From a virus (taxonomy: Duplodnaviria; Heunggongvirae; Uroviricota; Caudoviricetes): a DNA stretch of 39,290 bases. Shown piece after piece: positions 1 to 31,093 of this stretch. The stretch is from IMG/VR virus record IMGVR_UViG_2579778601_000004. The stretch is one strand, 5' to 3'. Positions within the stretch are counted from its first letter, which is position 1; each line of letters begins with the position of its first letter. The position numbers and the translations under genes are program-made. The notes beneath the pieces were generated by a model, which was not told where the DNA came from, did no database searches, and worked only from the letters and a program-made list of their open reading frames with translations.

Positions 1-1143
1 CTATGCTGTTTTGATATCTACGATAATCCAGTCTTTACCACGATCATCATTGTATCGGTCGGTCATTTTTCTGGATTTATGGCCTAACAACTTTTGCGTA
101 TCCAGACCCTGTTCCCGATATAACCGTTCTGACAGAGATCGCTGCTCATGAAATGTGGGCGCAGTTCCTTGCTCCCATTTTATGCCACATTTTTCCCGGG
201 CCTTTTTAAAAGCCGTTGTCAGAGTATTTGCAGAAACCTGGTCTCCTCTGTTTGCTTGAGAGGTAGTGTGACGGTAATGGACCAGATATTTACTAACAAC
301 AGCATCCCTGCACTGAGATATAACTTCACGAAGGGTAATATTCAGAGCATCGCATTTCAGGTTAAGCGGAATAGCAAGTTTTGAACCGGTTTTTTCCTGA
401 GTAATGTGCAACATGTCGTCCCATATATCAGAGAATTTCAAATTGCAGATATCGCCTAAACGTTGTCCAGTAACAAGAGCAAGTAGCATGCCGCATTTTA
501 AATAGGGCTGCCGTCTGCTTACGCTGTCAAATATTGCCTGCCATTCGGGCAGTGACAATCTTTGGCGGTTTACTCGATTTCGCGGTTGTTTTGTTGCCTG
601 CGCTGGGTTAAATCCTGGCGGAACATGTCCTGCGTGTTGTGCTTCTTTGAAGACGTCGATCAACACCATTCTCACGACTTGCGCCATCCTGTTATGACCT
701 TCAGCCTTTACAGCATCAATTATTTCGGCAATATCAAGTGCGGTAATATCCTTGAGGTGTTGCATTCCACAATGCTCACGGAAAAGACGAATGGGTTTGC
801 CTTTTTGCCGATAGGAGTTGGGTCTTAGTTCATTATGTTGCAGCCTGTCCTCTTGGATAGAAATATATTTATCAAGCCATTCTGTCACCGTAATGTCTGA
901 GCGCCTGCCTTTCATTCTTTCCAGACGCTCATTGACGCTTAATATTTGTCTGGTACGTTGTTCAGCAATAATGGTATTTGCTTCAGTAGCAACTTGTTTT
1001 GCTTCATTCTCATCAGTTCCTAAGCTATGAAAACGACCGGATAGTGGATGTTTGTATTGCCAATATACCTTTCCGGTTCGCTTATCTAATTTGCAATATA
1101 AATTGGGTATAGAGATTTTGTGAGATCGGGGTCTAGCAGCCAT
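1..1143 (-). CDS. int: Phage tyrosine integrase (site-specific recombinase), complete; not the lambda Int sequence
   Basis: 380-aa ORF ending at the TAG at 1-3; sits immediately downstream of and overlapping an excisionase-like gene at the prophage left end. Family call is by position and general recognition. Confidence 0.85.
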   Translation of the reverse strand: MAARPRSHKISIPNLYCKLDKRTGKVYWQYKHPLSGRFHSLGTDENEAKQVATEANTIIAEQRTRQILSVNERLERMKGRRSDITVTEWLDKYISIQEDRLQHNELRPNSYRQKGKPIRLFREHCGMQHLKDITALDIAEIIDAVKAEGHNRMAQVVRMVLIDVFKEAQHAGHVPPGFNPAQATKQPRNRVNRQRLSLPEWQAIFDSVSRRQPYLKCGMLLALVTGQRLGDICNLKFSDIWDDMLHITQEKTGSKLAIPLNLKCDALNITLREVISQCRDAVVSKYLVHYRHTTSQANRGDQVSANTLTTAFKKAREKCGIKWEQGTAPTFHEQRSLSERLYREQGLDTQKLLGHKSRKMTDRYNDDRGKDWIIVDIKTA

Positions 1144-1369
1144 CAGCGATTATCCTTTGGAGTTTTGGGTTTGCGTTTATTGGGAGTTGCGGTTCTGCAA
1201 GCGTTCCTACAAAACGGGAATTTCGGTCAATCATCCAGTAGCGACCAACTTTTATAGCGGGTGGGGCCATCATTTTCCCTTGCGCGTATTTTTTCAGAAC
1301 TCGCTCACTTGGTGCTAAGTCCCCAAATTCTTCTTTAGCCCAGTCCTGTAAAGTGATTAGTCGAGACAT
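1133..1369 (-). CDS. xis: Excisionase (Xis-like DNA-binding protein)
   Basis: 78-aa ORF overlapping the int start by 11 bp; ATG at 1369 preceded by GAGGAGG; LTLQDW...PPAIKVGRYWMI resembles the lambda Xis winged-helix region. Confidence 0.75.
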   Translation of the reverse strand: MSRLITLQDWAKEEFGDLAPSERVLKKYAQGKMMAPPAIKVGRYWMIDRNSRFVGTLAEPQLPINANPKLQRIIADGC

Positions 1370-1508
1370 TTGTCCTCCTCTTAGCTGCTGAGGGAGTTTG
1401 TGACCGATATATCTGACATGATATTAAGCTCATGGCAGGTACATCTCTTGACTGGTCATAGAGATAAATTTAATGCTGAGAAATGCAGTATTGAATTTAT
1501 CAATTTTT

Positions 1509-1748
1509 CTATTTCCTGCGCATGTCACGTAACTTCTTAATGTGTTCTGCCGTTTCGATCTCTTCTGCTATCCGATCTGCATCAGCTTTATTCACAGGTT
1601 CAAAGTCATGATTAAAGCGGAACATGCTGGCGATACATGTTCTGCCTTTTCGGATGTAGTGAACTTTGTTGTGGGTAGAACGCAGGATTTTGCAGGGAGT
1701 GCCGTGGTGGTCGACGTACCAGGTGTTAGGGTCAATCACTCTGAACAT
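1509..1748 (-). CDS. Hypothetical early-left protein (79 aa)
   Basis: ORF with ATG at 1748, in an overlapping same-strand series with the next gene (upstream gene stop at 1732); no family recognised. Confidence 0.45.
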   Translation of the reverse strand: MFRVIDPNTWYVDHHGTPCKILRSTHNKVHYIRKGRTCIASMFRFNHDFEPVNKADADRIAEEIETAEHIKKLRDMRRK

Positions 1749-2058
1749 TCTTGACCTTGTGTTGTGCGGATTGATATTCAGTGCTGATATTCACCTTTAT
1801 AGCGAACACCTTTACCGGTTTATCGCCAAAGTGCGGATGTGTGATTGTCTTCACTTCATATCCGTCATACGGAACATCAATTCTGCGACTGGAATCGTCG
1901 CGCTTCGGATATCCCTTTGTGATAATCAGGCGGTCATATTCCCGGAACATAATTCGCTTATTCCAGTAGTCATTACACAAGCGATACTCTTCCGTTTTCT
2001 CTCCGCGAATCATGGCATCGAAGTATTCACTTTTAACAGCAAGTTGCAGGTTAGCCAT
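1732..2058 (-). CDS. Putative ASCH/PUA-like domain protein (108 aa)
   Basis: ATG at 2058 shares its A with the upstream gene's TGA; N-terminal IRGEKTEEYR resembles the ASCH GxKTxExR signature. Family assignment tentative. Confidence 0.45.
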   Translation of the reverse strand: MANLQLAVKSEYFDAMIRGEKTEEYRLCNDYWNKRIMFREYDRLIITKGYPKRDDSSRRIDVPYDGYEVKTITHPHFGDKPVKVFAIKVNISTEYQSAQHKVKNVQSD

Positions 2059-2279
2059 CACTTAATCCCCCTTTGTTTGCGGATAAGCTCCAGATCTTGC
2101 TGGCAACTGGCGCAAGTCCGACAACCCTGAACGGCCAGGCGTCTTCGTTCATCTATCGGATCGCCACACTCACAACAATGAGTGGCAGATACAGCCAGGT
2201 AGTTCAGGCGGCGCATTTTTATTGCTGTGTTGCGCTGTAATTCTTCTATTTCTGATGCTGAATCAATGATGTCTGCCAT
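2058..2279 (-). CDS. TraR/DksA-family C4 zinc-finger protein
   Basis: 73 aa with CxxC-(17)-CxxC (CCECGD...CRTCASCQ), typical of phage TraR/DksA-like zinc fingers; ATG at 2279. Confidence 0.65.
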   Translation of the reverse strand: MADIIDSASEIEELQRNTAIKMRRLNYLAVSATHCCECGDPIDERRRLAVQGCRTCASCQQDLELIRKQRGIK

Positions 2280-2377
2280 CTTTCATTAATCCCTGAACTG
2301 TTGGTTAATACGCTTGAGGGTGAATGCGAACAATAAAAAAGGAGCCTGTAGCTCCCTGATAATTTTGCTTTTCATGT

Positions 2378-2659
2378 TCATCGTTCCTTAAAGACGCCGT
2401 TTAACATGCCGATTGCCAGGCTTAAATGAGTCGGTGTGAATCCCTTCAGCGTTACCGTTTCGCGGTGCTTCTTCAGTACGCTACGGCAAATGTCATTGAC
2501 GTTTTTATCCGGAAACTGCTGTCTGACTTTTTTGATTTCAGAATTAGCCTGACGGGCAATGCTGCGAAGGGCATTTTCTTGCTGAGGTGTCACTGAACAA
2601 GCCCCATGTCGGCAAGCATAAGCACACAGAATATGAAGCCCGCTGCCAGAAAAATGCAT
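2378..2659 (-). CDS. Hypothetical protein (93 aa)
   Basis: ORF with ATG at 2659 in the early-left gene series; no family recognised. Confidence 0.35.
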   Translation of the reverse strand: MHFSGSGLHILCAYACRHGACSVTPQQENALRSIARQANSEIKKVRQQFPDKNVNDICRSVLKKHRETVTLKGFTPTHLSLAIGMLNGVFKER

Positions 2660-2669
2660 TCAGTGGTTG

Positions 2670-2861
2670 TCATACCTGGTCTCTCTCATCTGCTTCTGCT
2701 TTCGCCACCATCATTTCCAGCTTTTGTGAAAGGGATGTGGCTAACGTATGAAATTCTTCGTCTGTTTCTGCTGGTATTGGCACAAACCTGACTCCAATTT
2801 GAGCAAGGCTATGTGCCAAATCAATACTCGTTCTTAACTCAACAGGAGATGCTTTGTGCAT
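2670..2861 (-). CDS. Hypothetical small acidic protein (63 aa)
   Basis: ORF in same-strand series upstream of exo; no family recognised. Confidence 0.3.
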   Translation of the reverse strand: MHKASPVELRTSIDLAHSLAQIGVRFVPIPAETDEEFHTLATSLSQKLEMMVAKAEADERDQV

Positions 2862-3022
2862 ACCGCCCCCCGTTTATTATTTATCTCCTCAGCCAGCCGC
2901 TGGGCTTTCAGCGGATTTCGGATAACAGAAAGACCGTGAAATACCCAGCCTCGCTTTGTAACGGAGTAGACGAAAGTGATCGCGCCTACCCGGATATTAT
3001 CGTGAGGATGGGTCATCGCCAT
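2834..3022 (-). CDS. Hypothetical small protein (62 aa)
   Basis: ATG at 3022; its third codon overlaps the exo stop (ATGGCGATGA), suggesting translational coupling; no family recognised. Confidence 0.3.
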
Positions 3023-3693
3023 TGCTCTCCAAATACAAAACCAATTTCAGCCAGTGCTTCGTCCATTTTTTCGATGAACTCCGGCACCATCTCGTCAAAA
3101 CTCGCCATGTACTTTTCATCCCGCTCAACCACGACATAATGCAGGCCTTCACGCTTCATTCGTGGGTCATAGTTGGCAAAGTACCAGGCATCTTTTCGTG
3201 TCACCCACATGCTGTACTGCACCTGGGCCATGTAAGCCGACTTTATGGCCTCGAAACCACCGAGCCGGAACTTCATGAAATCCCGGGAGGTAAACGGGCA
3301 TTTCAGCTCAAGGCCATTGCCGTCACTGCATAAACCATCGGGAGAGCAGGCGGTGCGCATACTTTCGTCGCGATAGATGATCGGGGATTCAGTAACATTC
3401 ACGCCGGAAGTGAATTCAAACAGGGTTCTGGCGTCGTTCTCGTACTGTTTTCCCCACGCCAGCGCCTTAGCATTAACTTCCGGAGCCACACCGGTGCAAA
3501 CCTCAGCCAGCAGGGTGTGGAAGTAGGACATTTTCATGTCAGGCCACTTCTTTCCTGAGCGGGGCTTTGCTATCACGTTGTGAACTTCTGAAGCGGTGAT
3601 GACGCCGAGCCGTAATTTGTGCCATGCATCATCCCCCTGTTCGACAGCTCTCACGTCGATCCCGGTACGCTGCAGGATAATGTCCGGTGTCAT
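3013..3693 (-). CDS. exo: Lambda exonuclease (Red alpha)
   Basis: 226-aa translation recognised as essentially identical to lambda Exo ([52 protein letters not shown]...). Confidence 0.95.
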
Positions 3694-4475
3694 GCTGCCA
3701 CCTTCTGCTCAGTGGCTTTCTGTTTCAGGAATCCAAGAGCTTTCACTGCTTCGGCCTGTGTCAGTTCTGACGATGCGCGAATGTCGCGGCGAAATATCTG
3801 GGAACAGAGCGGCAATAAGTCGTCATCCCATGTTTTGTCCAGGGCAATCAGCAGAGTGTTAATCTCCTGCATGGTTTCATCGTTAACCGGAGTGATGTCG
3901 CGTTCCGGCTGACGTTCCGCAGTGTATGCAGTATTTTCGACAATGCGCTCGGCTTCATCCTTGTCATAGATACCAGCAAATCCGAAGGCCAGACGGGCAC
4001 ACTGAATCATGGCTTTATGCCGTAACATCCGTTTGGGATGCGACTGCCACGGCCCCGTGATTTCTCTGCCTTCGCGAGTTTTGAATGGTTCGCGGCGGCA
4101 TTCATCCATCCATTCGGTAACGCAGATCGGATGATTGCGGTCTTTGCGGTAAATCCGGCACGTACATGATTCATTGTCCTGCTCAAAGTCCATGCCATCA
4201 AACTGCTGGTTTTCATTGATGATGCGGGACCAGCCATCAACGCCCACCACCGGAACGATGCCGTTCTGCTTATCAGGGAAGGCGTAAATTTCTTTCGTCC
4301 ACGGATTAAGGCCGTACTGGTTGGCGACGATCAGCAATGCGATGAACTGCGCATCGCTGGCATCACCTTTAAATGCCGTCTGACGAAGAGTGGTGATCAG
4401 TTCCTGTGGGTCGACAGAATCCATGCCGACACGTTCAGCCAGCTTCCCAGCCAGCGTTGCGAGTGCTGTACTCAT
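3690..4475 (-). CDS. bet: Red beta single-strand annealing protein
   Basis: 261-aa translation recognised as lambda Bet; start overlaps the exo end by 4 bp as in lambda. Confidence 0.95.
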
Positions 4476-4480
4476 CCGTT

Positions 4481-4777
4481 TTATACCTCTGAATCAATAT
4501 CAACATGGTGGTGAGCAATGGTTTCAACCATGTACCGGATGTGTTCTGCCATGCGCTCCTGAAACTCAACATCGTCATCAAACGCACGGGTAATGGCTTT
4601 TTTGCTGGCCCCGCAGCGTTGCAAATGATCGATGCAGAGTGATTCAAACAGGTGCTGTGGAAGACCTTTTTCCATGTCGTCTGCCAGTTCTGCCTCTTTC
4701 TCTTCACGGGCGATCTGCTGGTAGTGACGCGCCCAGCTTTGAGCCTCAAGACGATCCTGAATGTAATAAGCGTTCAT
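4481..4777 (-). CDS. gam: Gam, RecBCD inhibitor (short form)
   Basis: 98-aa translation matches lambda Gam from [26 protein letters not shown] 7 nt upstream of the ATG at 4777. Confidence 0.9.
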
Positions 4778-4852
4778 GGCTGAACTCCTGAAAATGGCTG
4801 TGAAAATATCGCCTGCGAAATGCCGGGCTGATTAGGTAAACAGGAAAGGGGA

Positions 4853-5059
4853 TTAGTGATTCAGGCCGTTGCCGCGTCCGTCGAGAAAAACTTCCACGAG
4901 CAAATCACGGGTATAAGTGCGCTCGATGCCGCGATGCAGATAAAGCCGTCCGCGTAAATTAGCTGATGCAGTCCAGGTACCATCTTTGTGTTTGACCAGC
5001 ATTCCTGGCATGACCGCACCGCGATTAACGGTCTGCGTTCCGTAATGTTGATGAACCAT
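4853..5059 (-). CDS. Hypothetical protein in the kil/cIII/N position (68 aa; ORF could extend to 96 aa with start at 5143)
   Basis: ATG at 5059 has a strong AGGAG 5-6 nt upstream; the longer ORF from 5143 has a weaker GAGG. No arginine-rich N-like motif; no family recognised. Confidence 0.4.
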
Positions 5060-5299
5060 AAAAACTCCTGCCCGTAAGCTGGGCTGCTGAACATATAGAG
5101 ACTTCTGCGCGTATTCAGGCGGTGGATGGCCGCCGGTTGTCATAACTAAGCCGCCTCGTTGAAGCGACTAAGGTATGAAATGTTGAGTTAATTTCAGCTG
5201 GTCACACCGACGTTCACGCGTCCGTTTCACCCCTCGCACTCCCCGAAGCCTGCTGAAATTCAAACTGCGGATCTAAGCGGTCATCGCAACGGTGAATCA

Positions 5300-5420
5300 G
5301 GTAGTTGCCGTATCGTTGTGTTGTTGCGATGAACTTATTTAAAACTATAGTTGTTTTATCGTCAACAACAAAAGTTGTTTTATTGGTTGTTTTAGATATA
5401 ACTGGTTGTATTTAGGATGG
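5300..5420 (-). promoter_or_regulatory. Putative OL/pL-like leftward operator-promoter cluster
   Basis: Clustered GTTGTT/AACAAC half-sites (CAACAACAAAAGTTGTT, TGGTTGTTTTAGATATAACTGGTTGT) sharing the half-site of the cI-cro palindrome; located left of the repressor terminator as OL is in lambda. Confidence 0.45.
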
Positions 5421-5504
5421 ATTTATTTTGTGACTTGAATCGCATAGCGATAACTGAAGCGAGGTTATGGTGGTTTTTTTAACGGTGTGTGTGATGAGGG
5501 GAGG

Positions 5505-5533
5505 GCAAAAGAAAACCCGGCACGGTGACCGGG
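5505..5533 (-). terminator. Putative intrinsic terminator downstream of the repressor gene
   Basis: On the minus strand CCCGG-TCACCGTG-CCGGG hairpin followed by TTTTCTTTT; about 120 bp past the repressor stop. Confidence 0.5.
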
Positions 5534-5654
5534 ATTCTTACGCCGTTAGGTAAAGATATTATTGCGGTGGCTTAATATTACTACCTAGAGCAAAGATAGG
5601 AATTAGTTCTTTACTGAATGAGCACAATGCCCAGTTGATAATTTTTAATTGGTA

Positions 5655-6344
5655 CTACCCATGCTTCCTATATGTCTGCGGCATGCTCCCAATAACCTTA
5701 CCGAAGATGAACACCCGGTTCATCTCGTCTTTCTCGATCGGGTCCCACGGTGAGTAGCTTTTGTTATCAGAGATGACCAGCAGCTTATCCTTCATCATTT
5801 GCAGGCGCTTTACATGGGCTGTGTCGTCGTACAGAAACGCATAGATACCATCACCGTCGAAAGATTTAACTGTGATATCAACGAACAGCAGATCACCTGG
5901 TTCGATCGTTCCTGACATGCTGTCACCACGCACGTTAATGATGCGGATATTTTCCGCCTTCCTACCATCGAACATGTGACGAGCATCGTCAAACGAGTAC
6001 TCAACCGAGCGTAGAACTTCTACAAACTCACGGTTGATGACTCCCGGCCCAGCACTGACTTCTATATCAAGAACGTCAATCTTGAAGTATTTGGAATGGC
6101 TGACAGTTGATTGTATTGGTTGCACTGTACTGTCTGACATATTTCCAACGCCAGAAGATAACCATTCTGCGCGCACACCCAAAGCGTTCGCGATCTCCAC
6201 GATTTTAGTTGTTTGATTAGCTTTCCCTGTTTCGATTTTCTGAATAGCAGCCTGGCTAACCCCGACCAAATCCCCAAGCGCCTTTTGTGTAAGGCCTCGC
6301 GCTAATCTGGCTTCTTTAAGTCTTTCTGAGAGTGTTGTTTTCAT
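5655..6344 (-). CDS. CI-like prophage repressor (N-terminal HTH, C-terminal LexA-like S24 peptidase)
   Basis: HTH (LTQKALGDLVGVSQAAIQKIE), Ala-Gly linker (SAGPG), S24 motifs (VRGDSMSGTIEPGDLLFVD, active-site Ser and KRL Lys). ATG chosen at 6344 (MKTTLSERL); the track's upstream extension to 6410 runs into the operator palindrome. Confidence 0.85.
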   Translation of the reverse strand: MKTTLSERLKEARLARGLTQKALGDLVGVSQAAIQKIETGKANQTTKIVEIANALGVRAEWLSSGVGNMSDSTVQPIQSTVSHSKYFKIDVLDIEVSAGPGVINREFVEVLRSVEYSFDDARHMFDGRKAENIRIINVRGDSMSGTIEPGDLLFVDITVKSFDGDGIYAFLYDDTAHVKRLQMMKDKLLVISDNKSYSPWDPIEKDEMNRVFIFGKVIGSMPQTYRKHG

Positions 6345-6448
6345 AGTCCAAATGTACAACCAAGGTTTTATTCCATCAAACGAAAATGGTTGTTGACTAA
6401 AAACAACCATAGTTTTAATCTTGATTCAAATTAACCACGGAGGTTGTT
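6345..6448. promoter_or_regulatory. OR-like divergent operator/promoter region with a 9-bp-arm palindrome
   Basis: ATGGTTGTT-GACTAAA-AACAACCAT inverted repeat at 6386-6410; TTGACT (-35-like) at 6393-6398; GGAGG RBS before the cro-like ATG at 6449. Confidence 0.55.
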
Positions 6449-6679
6449 ATGAACCCAGCTATCAAAACAGCGATCAATATCGTTGGTTCACAAAAGAAAC
6501 TGGGCGCTGCTTGCGAAGTTTCACAGCAGGCCGTCTATAAGTGGCTTCACAACAAAGCAAAGGTATCCCCTGAACATGTCGGCAGCATTGTTACGGCTAC
6601 TGGTGGAGTAGTGAAGGCATACCAGATTCGCCCGGATCTTCCGAAGTTGTTTCCACACACCGAAAAGAACGCAGCTTAA
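6449..6679 (+). CDS. Cro-like HTH regulator (YdaS/Cro family)
   Basis: 76 aa, divergent from the repressor; HTH-like LGAACEVSQQAVYKWL; GGAGG RBS. Confidence 0.65.
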   Translation: MNPAIKTAINIVGSQKKLGAACEVSQQAVYKWLHNKAKVSPEHVGSIVTATGGVVKAYQIRPDLPKLFPHTEKNAA

Positions 6680-6748
6680 ATTTCCATTTCACGCTCTTTA
6701 ACAATAAGCAATCAACTTAACAGTCAATTCAAACTAAAGGAGTCAATT

Positions 6749-7288
6749 ATGCAACCACTTACATACCAACAGACTAGCGGATTTAGCCCGACTGCGGTGA
6801 TAAATCGTTCTCAAACAAAACAGGTGCCAGGCCACGAAAAAATCCGTGATGCCGTCCGCGCCTGGTCGGCTGTAGATAATCAGGATGTCGTTGCCACACT
6901 CATTGTGAATGAGTATCTGGAGCAGGGCGGCGGCACCATCGATTTCCCTGATGATGTCAGCCGTGCACGCCAGAAGCTGTTCCGCTTCCTCGATAACAAA
7001 TTCGATTCTGAAAAATACCGAAATAACGTGCGTGAACTGACCCCGGCAATTCTGGCGGTACTACCGCTGGAATATCGCGGTTACCTGGTTGAGCAGGATA
7101 GCTTCATGGCTAGGTTGGCTGAAATGGAAAAGGAACTCAGTGAGGCAAAACAGGCTGTCATTCTCAACGCACCACGCCACCAGAAACTGAAGGAAATTAG
7201 TGAAGGTATTGTGTCGATGTTTCGTGTGGACCCAGATCTGGCTGGTCCATTGATGGCGATGGTTACTACCATGCTGGGGGCGATATGA
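6749..7288 (+). CDS. CII-position regulator, YdaT/CP76-like (tentative)
   Basis: 179 aa directly after the cro-like gene; AAGGAG RBS; EYLEQGGG motif that I associate with YdaT-type proteins. Not verified. Confidence 0.4.
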   Translation: MQPLTYQQTSGFSPTAVINRSQTKQVPGHEKIRDAVRAWSAVDNQDVVATLIVNEYLEQGGGTIDFPDDVSRARQKLFRFLDNKFDSEKYRNNVRELTPAILAVLPLEYRGYLVEQDSFMARLAEMEKELSEAKQAVILNAPRHQKLKEISEGIVSMFRVDPDLAGPLMAMVTTMLGAI

Positions 7289-7374
7289 CAGGTTCAGAAA
7301 TGGCGAAAGCCGGTCTGCTGGAACAGAACCGACTTTCAGGTGCAAATCGTAACACACTCATTGCGGGAGGAATT

Positions 7375-8304
7375 ATGGCAAACACTGCTGAGATATTCAA
7401 TTTTCCAGTGCCGGATGCGGCACAAAAGGAGCCGCGCGTGGCAGATCTCGATGATGGTTATACGCGCATTGCAAATGAGTTGCTGGAAGCTGTGATGCTG
7501 GCCGGATTAACACAGCACCAGCTTCTGGTCTTTCTGGCTGTCATGCGCAAAACATATGGCTTTAATAAAAAACTGGATTGGGTTAGCAACGAGCAACTTT
7601 CCGAATTAACCGGGATATTGCCGCACAAGTGTTCTGCTGCAAAAAGTGTTCTGGTAAAGCGTGGGATTTTTATTCAGAGCGGGCGGAATACCGGCATTAA
7701 TAATGTGGTCAGTGAATGGTCAACATTACCCGAATCAGGTAAGAAAAATAAAGTTTACCTGAAAGAGGTAAATTTACCTGAATCAGGTAAAAAAAGTTTA
7801 CCCAAATCAGGTAAAGGCGTTTACCCGAATCAGGTAAACACAAAAGACAAACTAACAAAAGACAATATAAAACCTTTTTCGTCCGAGAATTCTGGCGAAT
7901 CCTCTGACCAACCAGAAAACGATCTTCCTGTGGTGAAACCGGATGCTGCAATTCAGAGCGGCAGCAAGTGGGGGACAGCAGAAGACCTGACCGCCGCAGA
8001 GTGGATGTTTGACATGGTGAAGACCATCGCGCCATCAGCCAGAAAACCGAATTTTGCAGGGTGGGCTAACGATATCCGCCTGATGCGTGAACGTGACGGA
8101 CGTAACCACCGCGACATGTGCGTGCTGTTCCGCTGGGCATGCCAGGACAACTTCTGGTCCGGTAACGTGCTAAGTCCGGCCAAACTCCGCGACAAGTGGA
8201 CCCAACTCGAAATCAACCGTAACAAGCAACAGGCAGGCGTGACAGCTAGCAAACCAAAACTCGACCTGACAAACACAGACTGGATTTACGGGGTGGATCT
8301 ATGA
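7375..8304 (+). CDS. O: Replication initiator O (lambda O-like)
   Basis: Start chosen at ATG 7375 after GGGAGG (MANTAEIFNFPV...ADLDDGYTRIANELLEA, like lambda O MTNTAKILNF...ADLDDGY); contains the iteron array; stop overlaps the P start. Confidence 0.85.
   Translation: MANTAEIFNFPVPDAAQKEPRVADLDDGYTRIANELLEAVMLAGLTQHQLLVFLAVMRKTYGFNKKLDWVSNEQLSELTGILPHKCSAAKSVLVKRGIFIQSGRNTGINNVVSEWSTLPESGKKNKVYLKEVNLPESGKKSLPKSGKGVYPNQVNTKDKLTKDNIKPFSSENSGESSDQPENDLPVVKPDAAIQSGSKWGTAEDLTAAEWMFDMVKTIAPSARKPNFAGWANDIRLMRERDGRNHRDMCVLFRWACQDNFWSGNVLSPAKLRDKWTQLEINRNKQQAGVTASKPKLDLTNTDWIYGVDL
7726..7838. repeat. ori-lambda-type iteron array inside O, followed by an AT-rich tract
   Basis: Five copies of about 19 bp TTTACC(C/T)GAATCAGGTAAA, each with internal dyad TACC...GGTA, then an A-rich stretch at 7839-7875. 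Confidence 0.8.
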
Positions 8305-19996: not shown

Positions 19997-20302
19997 ATGC
20001 ACGAAAAAGAGAGCCTTGCCGGAGCGTTCTGGCTCGTTTTGCTGATCATCGCAGGTTGGGGCGGTCTGGTCCGCTACCTGATAGATGTGAAGCAGAGTAA
20101 AGCAACGTGGAGTTGGATAAATGCTCTGGCTCAAATAGTGGTATCAGGATTCACCGGTGTTATTGGTGGCCTGATCAGCATCGAAAGTGGATTCAGTATT
20201 TACATGATTCTCGCGACAGCGGGGATTAGTGGTGCGATGGGTTCGGTTGCACTGACGTACTTCTGGGAACGACTGACAGGGGTGAAAAATGCAAAATCTT
20301 AA
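19997..20302 (+). CDS. Putative holin (not lambda S-like in sequence)
   Basis: Hydrophobic protein with predicted TM segments (FWLVLLIIAGWGGLV, VVSGFTGVIGGLISI, MILATAGISGAMGSVALTYF) directly upstream of and overlapping the endolysin; ATG at 19997 (an in-frame TTG at 19985 is possible). Confidence 0.7.
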   Translation: MHEKESLAGAFWLVLLIIAGWGGLVRYLIDVKQSKATWSWINALAQIVVSGFTGVIGGLISIESGFSIYMILATAGISGAMGSVALTYFWERLTGVKNAKS

Positions 20303-20765
20303 TCCTCAGCGTAAAGCCTTCCTCGATATGTTGGCGTGGTCAGAAGGAACGGATAACGGGCGACAACCGACACGTAACCACGGTTATGATGTTATTGTTG
20401 GCGGCGAACTGTTTACTGATTACTCCGATCACCCTCGCAAACTTGTCACGCTACACCCCAAACTCAAATCAACAGCCGCCGGACGTTATCAGCTTCTTTC
20501 ACGCTGGTGGGATGCTTACCGTAAACAGCTTGGTTTGAAAGACTTCTCCCCCAAAAGCCAGGACGCAGTGGCATTACAGCAGATTAAAGAGCGTGGTGCT
20601 TTACCGATGATTGATCGCGGTGATATCCGTCAGGCAATCGACCGTTGCAGCAATATCTGGGCTTCACTGCCGGGCGCTGGTTATGGTCAGTTCGAGCATA
20701 AGGCTGACAGCCTGATTGCAAAATTCAAAGAAGCTGGCGGAACGCTCAGAGAGAGTGAGGTATGA
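20289..20765 (+). CDS. R: Endolysin R (lambda-type lytic transglycosylase)
   Basis: 158-aa translation recognised as near-identical to lambda R ([49 protein letters not shown]...). Confidence 0.95.
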
Positions 20766-21223
20766 GCAGAATAACCGCGATTATCTCCGCTCTGGTTATC
20801 TGCGTCATCGTCTGCCTTTCATGGGCGGTTAATCATTACCGCGATAACGCGATTACCTACAAAGCCCAGCGCGACAAAAATGCCAGAGAACTGACGCTGG
20901 CGAACGCGGCAATTACTGACATACAGATGCGTCAGCGTGATGTTGCTGCGCTCGATGCAAAATACACGAAGGAGTTAGCTGATGCGAAAGCTGAAAATGA
21001 TGCTCTGCGTGATGATGTTGCCGCTGGTCGTCGTCGGTTGCACATCAAAGCAGTCTGTCAGTCAGTGCGTGAAGCCACCACCGCCTCCGGCGTGGATAAT
21101 GCAGCCTCCCCCCGACTGGCAGACACCGCTGAACGGGATTATTTCACCCTCAGAGAGAGGCTGATCACTATGCAAAAACAACTGGAAGGAACCCAGAAGT
21201 ATATTAATGAGCAGTGCAGATAG
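20762..21223 (+). CDS. Rz: Spanin inner-membrane subunit Rz
   Basis: 153 aa with N-terminal TM segment and coiled-coil; recognised as lambda Rz; contains Rz1 in the +1 frame. Confidence 0.9.
20982..21164 (+). CDS. Rz1: Spanin outer-membrane lipoprotein Rz1 (embedded in Rz)
   Basis: 60 aa, lipobox VVGC, proline-rich (PPPPPAW); matches lambda Rz1. Confidence 0.9.
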
Positions 21224-21254
21224 AGCTGCCCATATCGATGGGCAACTCATGCAA

Positions 21255-21548
21255 TTATTGTGAGCAATACACACGCGCTTCCAGCGGAGTATAAATGCCT
21301 AAAGTAATAAAACCGAGCAATCCATTTACGAATGTTTGCTGGGTTTCTGTTTTAACAACATTTTCTGCACCACCACAAATTTTTGCTGCATCGACAGTTT
21401 TCTTCTGCCCAATTCCCGAAACGAAGAAATGATGGGTGATGGTTTCCTTTGGTGTTACTGCTGTAGGTTTGTTTCCAACAGTAAACGTCTGTTGAGCACA
21501 TCCTGTAATAAGCATTGCCAGAGCGGCAGAAAACAACATTTTTTTCAT
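21255..21548 (-). CDS. bor: Bor lipoprotein (serum-resistance lysogenic conversion protein)
   Basis: Start chosen at MKKMLFSAALAMLITGCAQQ (ATG 21548); remainder recognised as near-identical to lambda Bor. Confidence 0.9.
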   Translation of the reverse strand: MKKMLFSAALAMLITGCAQQTFTVGNKPTAVTPKETITHHFFVSGIGQKKTVDAAKICGGAENVVKTETQQTFVNGLLGFITLGIYTPLEARVYCSQ

Positions 21549-22028
21549 CTTATTATCCTGCATTGTTAAAAACGGCAGAATCCTATGTGACAACAATTAA
21601 ACGATAGTTAAATGGATTGATGAAAATTAAAACTACACAGGTGGGCTCAGACTATTGGAGGAAGTTGGGGACACTCAGAATCCTGTGGAATGAAATAAAC
21701 CGGTCTATCCGTCCATTACCCTTTTAGCTGCGCTGTATCGTCGCCGTATTCCCGCATTAACCATGACCGTAGCCCGACGGGGAATTCCTTCTGCGTGAGT
21801 GTGCGGGAATAATTAAAAACGATGCACACCGGGTTTTTACCGCGTTAATGATTCGCGGGTTTATCCCGGTGCGATGGTGGAAGAAACAGGAAGCTGTATT
21901 ACAGAAAGTGCTACTACTGTATCCCGATGCGATGTATGTAATGTGAGTCAGATAATGGCACAGGATGTGGTGATGTGGCAGTCTGGAACACAGGATATAT
22001 TGTCAGAATAAGACCCGTAGGAATAAAA

Positions 22029-23118: not shown

Positions 23119-23130
23119 GGGCGGCGACCT
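23119..23130. other. cos: cosN cohesive-end sequence (12-nt GGGCGGCGACCT) within the cos region
   Basis: Exact lambda left-end 12-mer, followed by lambda-like cosB/Nu1 upstream sequence (CGCGGGTTTTCGCTATTTATGAAAATTTTCCGG...). Confidence 0.85.
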
Positions 23131-23307
23131 CGCGGGTTTTCGCTATTTATGAAAATTTTCCGGTTTAAGGCGTTTCCGTTCTTCTTCGCCGTAACTTAAT
23201 GTTTTTATTTAAAACACTCCCTGAAAAGAAAGGAAACGACAGGTGCTGAAAACGGGCTTTTTGGCCTCTGTCGTTTCCTTTCTCTGTTTTTGTCCGTGGA
23301 ATGAACA

Positions 23308-23827
23308 ATGGAAGTCAACAAAAAGCAGCTGGCTGACATTTTCGGCGCGAGTATCCGTACTATTCAGAACTGGCAGGAGCAGGGAATGCCCGTTCTGCGA
23401 GGCGGTGGGAAGGGTAATGAGGTGCTTTATGACTCTGCCGACGTCATAAAATGGTATGCCGAAAGGGATGCTGAAATTGAGAACGAAAAGCTGCGCCGGG
23501 AGGTTGAAGAACTGCGACAGGCCAGCGAGACAGATCTCCAGCCAGGGACTATTGAGTACGAACGCCATCGACTTACGCGTGCGCAGGCCGACGCACAGGA
23601 GCTGAAAAATGCCAGAGACTCCGCTGAAGTGGTGGAAACCGCATTCTGTACTTTCGTGCTGTCGCGGATCGCAGGTGAAATTGCCAGTATTCTCGACGGG
23701 ATCCCCCTGTCGGTGCAGCGGCGTTTTCCGGAACTGGAAAACCGACATGTTGATTTCCTGAAACGGGATATCATCAAAGCCATGAACAAAGCAGCCGCGC
23801 TGGATGAACTGATACCGGGGTTGCTGA

Positions 23828-23853
<26 letters not shown>
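23308..23853 (+). CDS. nu1: Terminase small subunit Nu1
   Basis: Recognised as near-identical to lambda Nu1 (MEVNKKQLADIFGASIRTIQNWQEQGMPVLRGGGKGNEVLYDS...). Confidence 0.95.
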
Positions 23854-27534
<3,681 letters not shown>

Positions 27535-27554
<20 letters not shown>

Positions 27555-28854
27555 TCTCCCGCATATTGCCAGTATGGCCTTTAATGAGCCGCTGATGCTT
27601 GAACCCGCCTATGCGCGGGTTTTCTTTTGTGCGCTTGCAGGCCAGCTTGGGATCAGCCGCCTGACGGATGCGGTATCCGGCGACAGCCTGACTGCCGGAG
27701 AGGCACCCGCGGCGCTGGCGTTATCCGTTGATGATGACGGACCACGACAGGCCCGCAGTTATCAGGTCATGAACGGCATCGCCGTGCTGCCGGTGTCCGG
27801 CACGCTGGTCAGTCGGACGCGAGCGCTGCAGCCGTATTCGGGGATGACCGGTTACAACGGCATTATCGCCCGTCTGCAACAGGCTGCCAGCGACCCGATG
27901 GTGGACGGCATTCTGCTCGATATGGATACGCCAGGCGGGATGGTGGCAGGGGCATTTGACTGCGCTGACATCATCGCCCGTGTGCGTGACATAAAGCCGG
28001 TATGGGCGCTGGCCAACGACATGAACTGCAGTGCAGGTCAGTTGCTTGCCAGCGCCGCCTCCCGACGTCTGGTCACGCAGACCGCCCGGACAGGCTCCAT
28101 CGGCGTCATGATGGCTCACAGTAATTACGGTGCTGCGCTGGAGAAACAGGGCGTGGAAATCACGCTGATTTACAGCGGCAGCCATAAGGTGGATGGCAAC
28201 CCCTACAGCCATCTACCGGATGATGTCCGGGAAACACTGCAGTCCCGGATGGATGCAACCCGCCGGATGTTTGCACAGAAGGTGTCGGCATATACCGGCC
28301 TGTCCGTGCAGGCTGTGCTGGATACCGAGGCTGCAGTGTACAGCGGTCAGGAGGCCATTGATGCCGGACTGGCTGATGAACTTGTTAACAGTACCGATGC
28401 GATCACCGTCATGCGTGATGCACTGGATGCACGTAAATCCCGTCTCTCAGGAGGGCGAATGACCAAAGAGACTCAATCAACAACTGTTTCAGCCACTGCT
28501 TCGCAGGCTGACGTTACTGGCGTGGTGCCAGCGACGGAGGGCGAGAACGCCAGCGCTGCGCAGCCGGACGTGAACGCGCAGATCACCGCAGCGGTTGCGG
28601 CAGAAAACAGTCGCATTATGGGGATCCTCAACTGTGAGGAAGCTCACGGACGCGAAGAACAGGCACGCGTGCTGGCCGAAACCCCTGGTATGACCGTGGA
28701 AACGGCCCGCCGCATTCTGGCAGTTGCACCACAGAGTGCACAGGCGCGCAGTGACACTGCGCTGGATCGTCTGATGCAGGGGGCACCGGCACCGCTGGCT
28801 GCAGGTAACCTGGCATCTGATGCCGTTAACGATTTGCTGAACACACCAGTGTAA
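27535..28854 (+). CDS. C: Capsid assembly protease C
   Basis: GTG start at 27535 after GAGGAGGAG (VTAELRNLPHIASMAFNEPLML = lambda gpC N-terminus); overlaps the B 3' end as in lambda. Confidence 0.9.
28249..28854 (+). CDS. nu3: Scaffold protein Nu3 (in-frame internal start within C)
   Basis: Internal ATG at 28249 (MDATRRMFAQKVSAY) at the position expected from the lambda C/Nu3 arrangement. Confidence 0.65.
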   Translation: MDATRRMFAQKVSAYTGLSVQAVLDTEAAVYSGQEAIDAGLADELVNSTDAITVMRDALDARKSRLSGGRMTKETQSTTVSATASQADVTGVVPATEGENASAAQPDVNAQITAAVAAENSRIMGILNCEEAHGREEQARVLAETPGMTVETARRILAVAPQSAQARSDTALDRLMQGAPAPLAAGNLASDAVNDLLNTPV

Positions 28855-28863
28855 GGGATGTTT

Positions 28864-29196
28864 ATGACGAGCAAAGAAACCTTTACCCATTACCAGCCGC
28901 TGGGCAACAGTGACCCGGCTCATACCGCAACCGCGCCCGGCGGATTGAGTGCGAAAGCGCCTGCAATGACCCCGCTGATGCTGGACACCTCCAGCCGTAA
29001 GCTGGTTGCGTGGGATGGCACCACCGACGGTGCTGCCGTTGGCATTCTTGCGGTTGCTGCTGACCAGACCAGCACCACGCTGACGTTCTACAAGTCCGGC
29101 ACGTTCCGTTATGAGGATGTGCTCTGGCCGGAGGCTGCCAGCGACGAGACGAAAAAACGGACCGCGTTTGCCGGAACGGCAATCAGCATCGTTTAA
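28864..29196 (+). CDS. D: Head decoration protein D
   Basis: [12 protein letters not shown]... recognised as lambda gpD; 110 aa. Confidence 0.9.
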
Positions 29197-29251
29197 CTTT
29201 ACCCTTCATCACTAAAGGCCGCCTGTGCGGCTTTTTTTACGGGATTTTTTT

Positions 29252-30277: not shown

Positions 30278-30318
30278 TCATGGCCCTTCGGGGCCATTGT
30301 TTCTCTGTGGAGGAGTCC

Positions 30319-30717
30319 ATGACGAAAGATGAACTGATTGCCCGTCTCCGCTCGCTGGGTGAACAACTGAACCGTGATGTCAGCCTGACGGGGACGAAAG
30401 AAGAACTGGCGCTCCGTGTGGCAGAGCTGGAAGAGGAGCTTGATGACACGGATGAAACTGCCGGTCAGGACACCCCTCTCAGCCGGGAAAATGTGCTGAC
30501 CGGACATGAAAATGAGGTGGGATCAGCGCAGCCGGATACCGTGATTCTGGATACGTCTGAACTGGTCACGGTCGTGGCACTGGTGACGCTGCATACTGAT
30601 GCACTTCACGCCACGCGGGATGAACCTGTGGCATTTGTGCTTCCGGGAACGGCGTTCCGTGTCTCTGCCGGTGTGGCAGCCGAAATGACAGAACGTGGCC
30701 TGGCCAGAATGCAATAA
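30319..30717 (+). CDS. FI: DNA packaging protein FI
   Basis: MTKDELIARLRSLGEQLNRDVSLTGTKEELALRVAEL... recognised as lambda gpFI; 132 aa. Confidence 0.9.
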   Translation: MTKDELIARLRSLGEQLNRDVSLTGTKEELALRVAELEEELDDTDETAGQDTPLSRENVLTGHENEVGSAQPDTVILDTSELVTVVALVTLHTDALHATRDEPVAFVLPGTAFRVSAGVAAEMTERGLARMQ

Positions 30718-30728
30718 CGGGAGGCGCT

Positions 30729-31082
30729 GTGGCTGATTTCGATAACCTGTTCGATGCTGCCATTGTCCGCGCCGATGAAACGATACGCGGGTACATGGGA
30801 ACGTCAGCCACCATGACATCCGGTGAGCAGTCCGGCGCAGTAATACGTGGTGTTTTTGATGACCCTGAAAATATCAGCTATGCCGGACAGGGCGTGCGCG
30901 TTGAAGGCTCCAGCCCGTCCCTGTTTGTCCGGACTGATGATGTGCGGCAGCTGCGGCGCGGCGACACGCTGACCATCGGTGAGGAAAACTTCTGGATAGA
31001 CCGGATTTCGACGGATGATGGCGGAAGCTGTCATCTCTGGCTTGGGCGTGGCGTGCCGCCTGCCGTTAACCGTCGTCGCTGA
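30729..31082 (+). CDS. FII: Head completion protein FII
   Basis: GTG start; MADFDNLFDAAI.RADETIRGYMGTSAT... recognised as lambda gpFII. Confidence 0.9.
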   Translation: MADFDNLFDAAIVRADETIRGYMGTSATMTSGEQSGAVIRGVFDDPENISYAGQGVRVEGSSPSLFVRTDDVRQLRRGDTLTIGEENFWIDRISTDDGGSCHLWLGRGVPPAVNRRR

Positions 31083-31093
31083 AGGGGGGATGT

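Follow-up and report, generated by a model that had tools for sequence, protein, structure and literature searches.

In a lambda-like genome whose control region is not that of lambda, the question arises whether the three genes found there make up a working lysis–lysogeny switch, a pair of toxins held down by a repressor, or the remains of a switch that no longer operates.

Identity and spread of the control region

Within the window, that is, the whole stretch of 39,290 nucleotides analysed, 92–97% identity to lambda extends over positions 2068–4859 (Red), 7838–8992 (the 3′ part of O, and P), 20294–21602 (lysis genes), and 23119–39290 (heads and tails), whereas positions 4860–7837 give zero matches to lambda. 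The mosaic put forward in the original prediction, an immunity module foreign to lambda among lambda-like Red, replication, and structural genes, is thus confirmed. The locus is an ordinary lysis–lysogeny control region of a lambda-like E. coli prophage with its own non-lambda repressor, Cro, and phi80-type CII (Table 1); it is ordinary because the module has already been deposited and annotated and is very common. The types of the three genes are assigned by homology, and Pfam profile searches of all three proteins agree with the types predicted earlier.

Positions 5200–7400 are 100% identical to the plaque-forming phage PhiR34_1, whose record labels the genes cI, Cro, and cII, and the same cI (99.6–100% identical) occurs in six phage records, namely PhiR34_1, PhiR26_1, PhiR5_1, PhiR47_2, Turner, and IdasGreatGrand. 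E. coli K-12 MG1655, E. coli C, or E. coli is listed as the host for the six phage genomes with the identical module. Among complete E. coli genomes, 2226 of 5426 contain the module in part or as a whole, and at least 80% of it is present in 1501. The literature search found no experiments on this particular immunity type and nothing usable on the source paper of the PhiR phages or on GevA/GevT.

A complete and functional lambdoid switch with its own immunity specificity is the best explanation of the locus, with a probability of roughly 0.85. Defective prophages are common in E. coli, and N, cIII, and rex are missing here (neither cIII nor N is found next to PL), which would suit a decayed remnant in a cryptic prophage; however, the three reading frames are unbroken and preceded by good ribosome-binding sites, six deposited phage genomes contain the identical module, and conservation extends to the catalytic residues and to the promoter/operator geometry, leaving decay with next to no probability. 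As a discovery, a standard lambdoid switch of one of the commonest prophage immunity types in E. coli carries little weight. Its practical value lies in an operator map (ACAACY-N4-KTTKT) that can be put to the test in a very widespread immunity group, and in corrections to the PhiR34_1 annotation, where three genes have a wrong start or frame.

Table 1. Features of the control region, in positions of the window; promoters, operators, and CII sites are predictions from sequence.
Feature	Position	Strand	Description
PL	5337–5365	−	−35 TTGACG (5360–5365), 17-bp spacer, −10 TTAAAT (5337–5342)
OL1	5341–5354	−	ACAACTATAGTTTT; 14 bp, in PL spacer/−10; pattern match, PWM scan
OL2	5365–5378	−	ACAACTTTTGTTGT; 14 bp, abuts PL −35; 24 bp from OL1
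Intrinsic terminator after cI	5516–5533	−	CCCGGTCACCGTGCCGGG then TTTTCTTTTG; terminator scan
cI repressor	5655–6344	−	229 aa; 434-like HTH, linker with Ala98-Gly99, S24 autoprotease domain (Ser142, Lys179)
PRM	6351–6379	−	−35 TTGATG (6374–6379), 17-bp spacer, −10 TACATT (6351–6356)
OR3	6356–6369	+	ACAACCAAGGTTTT; inside PRM spacer
OR2	6380–6393	−	ACAACCATTTTCGT; between PRM −35 and PR −35
Palindrome	6386–6410		9-bp arms, 7-bp spacer; inner ends of OR2 and OR1, plus PR −35
PR	6393–6421	+	−35 TTGACT (6393–6398), 17-bp spacer, −10 TAATCT (6416–6421)
OR1	6403–6416	+	ACAACCATAGTTTT; in PR spacer/−10
Second YdaT-box-like sequence	6421–6438	+	TTGATTCAAATTAACCAC; at PR start; 9/10 core, 10/12 match; hypothesis by analogy
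cro	6449–6679	+	76 aa; YdaS/P22-Cro type HTH; GGAGG ribosome-binding site 6 nt upstream
cII	6749–7288	+	179 aa; phi80-type CII = YdaT family; AAGGAG ribosome-binding site
Candidate CII (YdaT-box-like) site	6797–6814	+	GTGATAAATCGTTCTCAA; inside cII codons 17–22, +49; 8/12 match; hypothesis
oop/M3-like antisense RNA unit	7295–7400	−	predicted; Po and terminator hairpin 7303–7335, just after cII

The repressor, Cro, and their predicted operators

The repressor reading frame runs over 5655–6410 on the minus strand when read from its first ATG, which the original prediction took as the start. The true start is most likely not that at 6410 but the ATG at 6344, where PGAP and PhiR47_2 annotate it, and the earlier call is abandoned. 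The N-terminus of cI matches Pfam HTH_3 (5.4e-13, residues 9–62), with the 434 repressor as the best solved structure for this domain (4.5e-9, PDB), and the C-terminus matches Peptidase_S24 (PF00717; 1.2e-18, 67.3 bits against a cut-off of 23.3, residues 95–218); the protein also matches PHROG_4. Ser142 in GDSM and Lys179 in VKRL align with Ser60 and Lys97 of UmuD, so that the S24 dyad is intact, and the UmuD K97A chain 8gmt_B places its Ala in the Lys179 column of the alignment. Ala98-Gly99 is situated within EVSAGPG of the linker, 44 residues before Ser142, where the S24 match begins, and is the putative cleavage site. A LexA-like repressor with an intact S24 domain and an Ala-Gly linker, as predicted, is therefore borne out by Pfam and by the dyad aligned to UmuD. 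Upon DNA damage, RecA would stimulate self-cleavage of cI at this site by means of Ser142 and Lys179, which would separate the two domains and lead to prophage induction. Past the cI stop, the intrinsic terminator lies at a distance of 120 bp, in the slot that holds cargo such as GevA/GevT in relatives.

Divergent from the repressor and 105 bp from the cI start, cro is the first gene of the rightward operon. Its product matches Pfam YdaS_toxin (PF15943; 4e-17, 62.2 bits against a cut-off of 30) and P22_Cro (8e-5), the Xfaso Cro structure 3bd1 in the PDB (7e-4), and PHROG_35, which agrees with the Cro-like HTH gene expected after the repressor. No NCBIfam family scores above its cut-off for Cro or the 179-residue protein.

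The two control regions share a GTTGTT half-site, as the original prediction had held. ACAAC/GTTGT pentamers are enriched in both, with seven in 106 bp at OL (0.23 expected) and five in 121 bp at OR (0.26 expected), and the pattern ACAAY-N4-KTYKT has six matches at five loci in the window, all in OL or OR, against 1.63 expected. The OR sites at 6356, 6380, and 6403 are spaced by 24 and 23 bp and interleaved with the promoter hexamers, and PL mirrors PR, with a 19-nt stretch (5339–5357) that is 95% complementary to 6400–6418. Judged by their order and placement, the five sites appear to form a lambda-style OR3/OR2/OR1 and OL1/OL2 layout. The second half of OR2 is poor (TTCGT), both halves of OL2 match the ACAAC half-site, and no clear OL3 can be assigned at OL, where extra ACAACC half-sites are present at 5385–5390 and 5404–5409. 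PR and PRM are weak promoter matches, below the threshold of a simple scanner. A put-like antiterminator RNA was considered for the PL leader and rejected (no meaningful similarity to HK639 putL; folding z 0.18).

In the proposed mechanism, cI dimers would bind 14-bp sites of the form ACAACY-N4-KTTKT, three at OR and at least two at OL. Occupation of OR1 and OR2 would block PR, and that of OL1 and OL2 would block PL. Lambda CI activates PRM from the position that OR2 matches here, directly upstream of the PRM −35, so that OR2 may serve the same purpose, and OR3, inside PRM, would allow negative autoregulation. Transcription from PRM is predicted to start at about the A of the cI ATG (6344), which would leave the cI mRNA from this promoter leaderless. 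The geometry is like that of lambda PRM and of paaR2 in CP-933P, the latter leaderless by experiment (PMC8630535).

Comparison between phages connects the sites with the recognition helix. The helix SQAAIQK is common to cI here, to Klebsiella phage ST101-KPC2phi6.1 (cI 77% identical), and to Salmonella phage UPF_BP1 (cI 35% and Cro 68% identical), and both of the other phages possess three 14-mers of the ACAAC...GTTTT type with 24/23 spacing and a variable central 4 bp. The OR3 sequence recurs unchanged at the corresponding place in UPF_BP1 and almost unchanged in ST101-KPC2phi6.1, and an identical OR2 is found in the latter. The Cro helix SQQAVYK resembles the cI helix, with a common S-Q-x-A start, and in Stx1 phage 06-3462 both change A to P (SQPAIQK in cI, SQPAVHK in Cro), while the same-position sites change from ACAAC to mostly ATAAC-N4-GTTAT. 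Helix changes track site changes across these phages; therefore, helices and sites covary. In 3W/S149, which has a different helix, a 14-bp palindrome ATACGCTTGCGTAT occupies the OR3 position. Cro would thus bind the same sites as cI, as its sequence and this comparison suggest.

The original prediction had described a single palindromic operator with 9-bp arms. The sequence ATGGTTGTT-N7-AACAACCAT is indeed present exactly at 6386–6410 and is unique in the window even when three mismatches are allowed (0.01 expected); what does not stand is its reading as one operator. The left arm is the ACAACCAT end of OR2, the right arm is the ACAACCAT end of OR1, and the PR −35 sits in the "spacer", so that the palindrome probably arises where two neighbouring 434-like operators of 14 bp abut, one on either side of this hexamer. 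A primary operator bound as a whole unit by one repressor dimer would account for a perfect 9+9 inverted repeat, far beyond chance and covering the PR −35; nevertheless, it is improbable on several grounds. There is no other copy, the OL counterpart having 6-bp arms and an 8-bp spacer; the half-site centres are about 16 bp (about 1.5 helical turns) apart, a poor fit for a 434-like HTH dimer; and OR3 shows the 14-bp pattern without a palindromic partner. Furthermore, in three other phages whose recognition helix is identical or nearly so, the 14-bp sites and their spacing are preserved but the palindrome is not. Decay of the arms to 6/9 is seen in the Klebsiella relative, where the 14-mers remain intact, and in UPF_BP1, despite the same helix, the three sites lie in one orientation, and therefore no palindrome exists there although the 14-bp sites persist. 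The palindrome was also flagged as terminator-like on both strands; its AT-rich stem, with 3 GC pairs, and its location inside divergent promoters led to the rejection of this reading.

The 179-residue protein and its candidate sites

The product of the third gene matches Pfam YdaT_toxin (PF06254; 9e-30, 103.4 bits against a cut-off of 21) and, simultaneously, PHROG_163, "CII-like transcriptional activator" (6e-67). Its identity is 65.6% to phi80 cII over the full length, 67% to mEp237, 72% to CobraSix, and 51% to HK225/HK639. PF06254 is the sole Pfam match at E ≤ 0.01, the lambda-type family Phage_CII being absent. The YdaT structures 8bt1 and 3c4r are matched by sequence in the PDB, and chains of the same two entries are the top six Foldseek hits of an AF2 monomer model (pLDDT 76.5; probability 1.0, TM 0.67–0.71 over about 120 residues), in which a POU-like HTH domain is predicted to precede a long helix. 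Arg79 (QKLFRFLD), invariant in 26 homologues, aligns with the FRW motif of 8bt1/3c4r, the neighbouring Trp being Phe here, and is the counterpart of the conserved DNA-contacting Arg in the recognition helix (Rac R57). Because one protein combines membership of Pfam YdaT with 66% identity to phi80 cII, "YdaT-like" and "CII" denote the same thing; published work likewise treats YdaT as the CII-analogue, homologous to phi80 CII, and YdaS as the Cro-analogue (PMC8630535, PMC9986795, PMC5917428). The predicted YdaT relationship in the cII slot is upheld, whereas the opposition drawn between a YdaT-like protein and a canonical CII falls away, the protein being both.

The notion of a repressor-controlled toxic pair, also part of the original prediction, is an older and outdated reading, against which PMC8630535, PMC9986795, and PMC5917428 argue. 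The 76- and 179-residue genes would then form a toxin–antitoxin or toxin–toxin pair (YdaS/YdaT) instead of switch regulators, in keeping with the Pfam names "YdaS_toxin" and "YdaT_toxin", the PGAP name "toxin YdaT domain-containing protein", and the filamentation and death that over-expressed Rac YdaT causes through rcsA (PMC11879457). However, the names stem from a 2007 prediction unsupported by later studies, and over-produced lambda CII is toxic too, yet it is not called a toxin (PMC5917428). YdaT of CP-933P is non-toxic and activates a PRE-like promoter (PMC8630535), and YdaT has been characterised as a DNA-binding tetramer with a POU-like HTH (PMC9986795). By family and fold both proteins here are HTH DNA-binding regulators, which does not fit a type II toxin–antitoxin system, an assignment also rejected in the literature (PMC5917428, PMC8630535). 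Moreover, the 66% identity to phi80 cII concerns a product in the cII slot of live temperate phages. A toxin pair is accordingly very improbable, and the thousands of PGAP annotations that say "toxin YdaT domain-containing protein" are better read as "phi80-type CII".

As a phi80-type CII, the protein is expected to behave like YdaT of CP-933P and Rac, assembling into a tetramer and switching on leftward transcription of cI from an establishment promoter (PMC8630535, PMC9986795, PMC11879457). The best candidate for its binding site, as a hypothesis drawn from sequence, is 6797–6814, where 49 of 50 homologous loci match TGATT-N6-AATCA in at least 7 of 10 positions, against a background of 0.5% per position, all within coding sequence; the site is kept in the HK225 group though the amino acids differ. 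A PRE-like promoter sought by eye near the cII start yielded only a CATAAT overlapping the ATG, which is not conserved in relatives, and no establishment promoter was located. Synonymous-site conservation along cII, used as a test for a cis-element, is 0.66–0.85 in codons 1–25 against a gene mean of 0.555, a signal that is confounded because, at low amino-acid identity, pairs that share residues are close relatives.

The second YdaT-box-like sequence lies at the PR start, and Rac YdaT footprints over the ydaS promoter (PMC11879457). A perfect box (12/12) at 17403–17420 overlaps the −35 of a predicted rightward promoter, TTGATT-17-CATAAT at 17403–17431, upstream of orf33/ninB. Six phages or records conserve this box, with a total of five different spacers; five of the six have this cII type, and the sixth is a partial phage 82 record. 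In the window as a whole the Rac-type box is not enriched (21 matches at ≤3 mismatches, 20.2 expected), and the cro–cII intergenic region of phi80-type phages contains no consistent match. It is thus a tentative and rather doubtful suggestion that this CII recognises the Rac/CP-933P box TTGATT-N6-AATCAA with a regulon wider than cI establishment, comprising 6797–6814, 6421–6438, and the ninB-side box, and shuts off a secondary nin/Q promoter, possibly with looping of the tetramer between boxes. In lambda, the PaQ antisense transcript is CII-dependent; if the suggestion is true, the outcome would be the same by a different mechanism, and confirmation of the conserved perfect boxes upstream of ninB could extend the known regulon of this CII family.

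Just after cII, the oop/M3-like unit folds at −24.1 kcal/mol (z −2.86), with Po consisting of −35 TTGAAT (7395–7400) and −10 CATAAT (7372–7377; promoter scan 9/12 with TG). A hairpin with different stem sequences exists at the corresponding position in mEp237 and phi80, where the phi80 record annotates M3 RNA. Across the entire window, no Rfam family reaches its gathering threshold.

Comparison with known systems

PhiR34_1 (PV340559.1) contains the module itself without any difference, although in its record cI is annotated too long, at 251 aa, as is O, by 30 codons, and kil is placed in the wrong frame. PhiR47_2 has a GevA/GevT cargo between cI and OL, which the present module lacks. In the case of phi80, the immunity region (cI, gene 30/Cro, cII, M3 RNA) has the same gene order; the full-length similarity of the cII product, the M3/oop-like hairpin after cII, and an OR with three operators interleaved with pRM and pR are likewise shared. 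However, its cI and Cro are distant (24% identity, or no significant match), its 19-bp operators have a different sequence, and it possesses N, nutL, and a cI leader of about 13 nt by the annotated pRM, whereas the window has no N and no predicted cI leader.

YdaS/YdaT, accompanied by PaaR2 in CP-933P or RacR in Rac, both cryptic prophages, belong to the same Pfam families and share the same fold. The recognition-helix core R-x-x-Q-K-x-F-R and the position between the repressor and O are kept, and the repressor mRNA is leaderless in CP-933P and predicted to be so here (PMC8630535). The identity to YdaT of Rac/CP-933P is only about 26%, and in the model of the 179-residue protein the N-terminus is extended by about 25 disordered residues and the C-terminus by about 40 residues that form two more helices. 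In those two prophages the experimentally defined box (A/T)TGATT-N6-AATCAA is situated either where ydaS ends or at the start codon of ydaT, whereas the best conserved match here is located at +49 in the gene. In a coarse comparison, PaaR2 and RacR lack the S24 domain arrangement of cI.

The 434 repressor binds 14-bp ACAA-N6-TTGT operators. Like cI, it has Gln first in the recognition helix, and its operators resemble the present sites in their length, their initial ACAA, and their poorly conserved central bases; the helix otherwise differs (QAAIQK here, QQSIEQ in 434), and the sites here have a conserved C as the fifth base and a second half of GTTTT, not of the TTGT type. Lambda CII occupies the same slot and has the same expected role as an activator of lysogeny-establishment transcription, but no sequence-family relationship is detected, and the 179-residue protein is twice as long. 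Lambda CII recognises direct TTGC-N6-TTGC repeats, whereas the site expected for the present CII is an inverted repeat.

Mosaic genome and spread of the immunity region

By local BLAST against lambda, this lambdoid prophage is mosaic: four segments of the window are lambda-like at 92–97% identity (see table), and 4860–7837 has no lambda match. Because such segments flank this stretch, the original prediction of a foreign immunity region amid lambda-like Red, replication and structural genes is correct. Escherichia phage PhiR34_1 (PV340559.1) carries positions 5200–7400 at 100% identity, with the three genes annotated as cI, Cro and cII, and the same cI (99.6–100%) is found in six deposited phages. 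Of 5426 complete E. coli genomes, 2226 contain matches to 5300–7290, and in 1501 of these the match spans 80% or more of the region. PGAP names the three products 'S24 family peptidase', 'transcriptional regulator' and 'toxin YdaT domain-containing protein'. The module is an ordinary, very common lambdoid immunity region that has been deposited already. The observation behind the original prediction and its gene identities are confirmed, but its toxin framing is outdated and its operator was misparsed. The analysis adds, modestly, an operator map and a set of conserved YdaT boxes, both open to testing.

The 235-bp slot from OL to the cI stop (5420–5654) is empty of cargo and contains only a terminator. 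In lambda, rexAB occupies the cI–OL slot. In relatives (comparison sequence L002, 2341–3769), the slot is filled: PhiR47_2 has the toxin-antitoxin pair GevA/GevT there, and 3W and S149 have other ORFs. Leftward, kil (PHROG_294, 1e-38; 4853–5143, minus strand) is the sole gene from PL to gam, preceded by a leader at 5144–5335; PhiR34_1 annotates a 77-aa ORF in another frame at the kil locus. ORF and PHROG searches between PL and gam found no N, nutL or cIII, and the PL leader shows neither put-like similarity to HK639 nor excess folding. At the predicted PL transcript start lies a small hairpin, ATCGCAACAACACAACGAT (5311–5329, minus strand), and a single pairwise alignment gives a similar hairpin, ATCGAAACGAAACATCGAT, in the HK639 pL leader (comparison sequence L071, ~34370, minus strand).

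Repressor, Cro and predicted operators

The longest cI ORF begins at ATG 6410 (251 aa); PGAP and the PhiR47_2 record use ATG 6344 (229 aa, MKTTLSERL...), the residue at which alignment with homologues of other phages begins. The protein contains HTH_3 (Pfam, residues 9–62, 5e-13) and Peptidase_S24 (residues 95–218, 67 bits vs a cut-off of 23) domains; the best solved relative of its N-terminal domain is the 434 repressor (4.5e-9), and its C-terminal domain can be aligned to UmuD and LexA. The predicted Ser/Lys dyad is intact, with Ser142 (GDSM) in the column of UmuD Ser60 and Lys179 (VKRL) in that of Lys97, where the K97A chain 8gmt_B carries Ala. The predicted Ala-Gly linker is likewise present as Ala98-Gly99 (EVSAGPG), the sole Ala-Gly of the linker, situated where the S24 match starts. 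With these domains, dyad and linker, cI has the sequence features needed for RecA-stimulated self-cleavage, and the prophage would be SOS-inducible. The 76-aa Cro, with GGAGG six bases 5' of ATG 6449, matches Pfam YdaS_toxin (4e-17), P22_Cro, PHROG_35 and the solved Xfaso-1 Cro, in agreement with the Cro-like HTH gene predicted.

The palindrome reported as the operator, ATGGTTGTT-GACTAAA-AACAACCAT, lies with its 9-bp arms exactly at 6386–6410 and occurs once in the window with up to three mismatches allowed. It is probably not one operator; rather, it represents the facing ACAACCAT ends of OR2 and OR1 across the PR -35. Across 39 kb, the pattern ACAAY-N4-KTYKT is matched six times, vs 1.63 expected; the matches fall into five loci, all within OL or OR. 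These 14-bp sites are spaced by 24 and 23 bp in OR and by 24 bp in OL, and are exactly interleaved with plausible promoter hexamers. PL and PR are mirror-imaged over 19 nt (95% complementary), and PR and PRM score below the threshold of a simple promoter scanner; we infer all promoter assignments from the sequence.

Features of the immunity region and related segments of the window
Feature	Position	Strand	Sequence or composition	Basis or location
OR3, predicted operator	6356–6369		ACAACCAAGGTTTT	ACAAY-N4-KTYKT
OR2, predicted operator	6380–6393	minus	ACAACCATTTTCGT	ACAAY-N4-KTYKT
OR1, predicted operator	6403–6416		ACAACCATAGTTTT	ACAAY-N4-KTYKT
OL1, predicted operator	5341–5354	minus	ACAACTATAGTTTT	ACAAY-N4-KTYKT
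OL2, predicted operator	5365–5378		ACAACTTTTGTTGT	ACAAY-N4-KTYKT
PRM order			-10 TACATT 6351–6356, OR3, -35 TTGATG 6374–6379, OR2	inferred
PR order			-35 TTGACT 6393–6398, OR1, -10 TAATCT 6416–6421	inferred
PL order			-10 TTAAAT 5337–5342, OL1, -35 TTGACG 5360–5365, OL2	inferred
Intrinsic terminator	5516–5533	minus		3' of cI; terminator scan
Candidate YdaT-box-like site	6421–6438		TTGATTCAAATTAACCAC	at PR start site
Candidate CII site	6797–6814		GTGATAAATCGTTCTCAA	cII codons 17–22
oop/M3-like hairpin	7303–7335		-24.1 kcal/mol, z -2.86	
oop/M3-like promoter	7400–7372	leftward	TTGAAT-17-CATAAT	predicted, 3' of cII
Perfect YdaT box	17403–17420		TTGATTATGAATAATCAA (TTGATT-ATGAAT-AATCAA)	
Lambda-like segment	2068–4859		orf61 to exo, bet, gam	local BLAST
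Lambda-like segment	7838–8992		O 3' part and P	local BLAST
Lambda-like segment	20294–21602		lysis genes	local BLAST
Lambda-like segment	23119–39290		cos to tail genes	local BLAST

Four comparisons favour the 14-bp sites over a palindromic operator. The OL counterpart has 'arms' of 6 bp and an 8-bp spacer in place of 7 bp, with the internal geometry of the 14-mers unchanged. In the Klebsiella phage ST101-KPC2phi6.1, whose cI is 77% identical and has an unchanged recognition helix (GVSQAAIQKIETG), the sites are ACAACCATGGTTTT, ACAACCATTTTCGT and ACAACTAAGGTTTT, likewise 24 and 23 bp apart; their 5-bp ends are kept, their central 4 bp are variable, and the arms of the palindrome fall to 6/9. In the Salmonella phage UPF_BP1 (cI 35% identical, helix GVSQAAIQK; Cro 68% identical), the sites ACAACCAAGGTTTT, ACAACCAAAGTGTT and ACAACCTTAGTTTT, again with 24/23 spacing, share a single orientation, and therefore no palindrome exists. 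The Stx1 phage 06-3462, with Ala-to-Pro in both recognition helices (cI SQPAIQK, Cro SQPAVHK), has ATAACCACGGTTAT, ACAACAATTGTTAT and ATAACTCATGTTAT at the same positions. In phages 3W and S149, whose helix is different, the OR3 position is occupied by ATACGCTTGCGTAT. Furthermore, the palindrome half-site centres, ~16 bp apart, would lie on different helix faces. The 434 repressor, the closest solved cI relative, likewise binds a 14-bp ACAA...-type operator.

Extra ACAAC/ACAACC half-sites are situated beyond the five predicted operators (5315–5324, 5385–5390, 5404–5409 and 6434–6447), including a tandem pair in the PL leader, two 5' of OL2 as a possible OL3, and ACAACCTCCGTGGT over the cro ribosome-binding site. 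Because the PRM -10 ends seven bases 5' of the A in the cI ATG, we predict a leaderless cI mRNA. The lambda cI mRNA is leaderless, and the mRNA of paaR2, the CP-933P repressor gene, is leaderless by experiment (PMC8630535).

The phi80-type CII and its predicted trailing RNA

The 179-aa protein, predicted to be YdaT-like, matches Pfam YdaT_toxin (9e-30), PHROG_163 'CII-like transcriptional activator' (6e-67) and the sequences of both solved YdaT structures, 8bt1 and 3c4r. Its AlphaFold2 model (26 homologues as input, pLDDT 76.5) shows disordered residues 1–25 (pLDDT below 50) followed by eight helices, and the best six PDB matches are all 3c4r/8bt1 chains (probability 1.0, TM 0.67–0.71, ~26% identity). 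Its full-length identity to the phi80 cII product is 65.6%, and its identity to the CII of mEp237, CobraSix and HK225/HK639 is 67%, 72% and 51%, respectively. These matches identify the protein as a phi80-type CII, a type that belongs to the YdaT family; to pose a canonical CII without YdaT relationship as the refuting case is a false opposition.

The cI proteins of these phages are at most 28% identical to the one here, no significant Cro match exists between them and the window, and their own cI and cro are not close relatives of one another. Because cI and cro differ among phages sharing this type of cII, the sequences indicate that cII and its 3' hairpin RNA are a separately exchangeable module. 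The predicted leftward promoter and the hairpin would form an oop/M3-like RNA unit, housed in the 87-bp gap between cII and O. The alignment places the O start at ATG 7376, after GGGAGG and level with the start of lambda O, so cII and O do not overlap; the annotated start at 7285, which overlaps the cII stop, probably precedes the true one by 30 codons. mEp237 and phi80 have a hairpin at the corresponding position, annotated as M3 RNA in phi80, but the stem sequences differ.

Candidate CII sites and comparison with known YdaT systems

No CII establishment promoter was located in the module, and the published YdaT box, (A/T)TGATT-N6-AATCAA, is not enriched across the whole window. At the offset of the candidate site within cII, 49 of 50 homologous loci (40-odd species) match at least 7/10 of the box core (background 0.5% per position), and the HK225 subgroup has ATGATT-N6-AATCGC there despite different amino acids. 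This conservation is only suggestive of a CII site because it falls in the coding sequence of related genes; a synonymous-site conservation test along cII was confounded. Codons 1–25 of cII (6749–6823) encode the predicted disordered residues, yet several stretches of their DNA hardly vary in ~50 loci, namely ATGCAnnCACTT and TGATAAAYCG, the latter containing the rare Ile codon ATA. Lambda PRE lies inside cII, and by analogy these stretches may reflect a cis element within the coding sequence.

A putative rightward promoter (TTGATT, 17 bp, CATAAT; 17403–17431) lies 5' of orf33/ninB, and the perfect box overlaps its -35; the phage 82 record (X92588) annotates these hexamers as a putative promoter. 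The box occurs at this place with five spacers, namely those of the window, of phage 82 and PhiR34_1 (shared), of HK639, of PhiR5_1 and of KO-TP1, the last with the right arm TATCAA. A phi80/YdaT-type cII is present in 19/19 complete phage records having this block; phi80 itself lacks the box-bearing block. Here CII may have a second target, from which nin/Q expression would be controlled. The stretch separating the replication genes from ninB contains a moron, a leftward esterase-like alpha/beta-hydrolase gene (16316–17137, minus strand); the records of related phages annotate porin and ybcK-like genes.

The equivalence of YdaT and CII has been published already. Jobling made the case from genetic context for ydaS/ydaT as cro/cII equivalents, not toxins (PMC5917428), and Jurenas et al. 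found CP-933P YdaT to be a non-toxic activator of a PRE-like promoter and a phi80 CII homologue (PMC8630535). Prolic-Kalinsek et al. solved the structure of YdaT, a tetrameric POU-like HTH protein that binds TTGATT-N6-AATCAA (PMC9986795). Wons et al. traced the toxicity of over-expressed YdaT to rcsA activation, mapped the Rac YdaT box ATGATTCATGAAAATCAA to the ydaT start codon, and found that Rac and CP-933P YdaT, 30% identical, bind each other's sites; the Rac YdaT footprint covers the ydaS promoter (PMC11879457).
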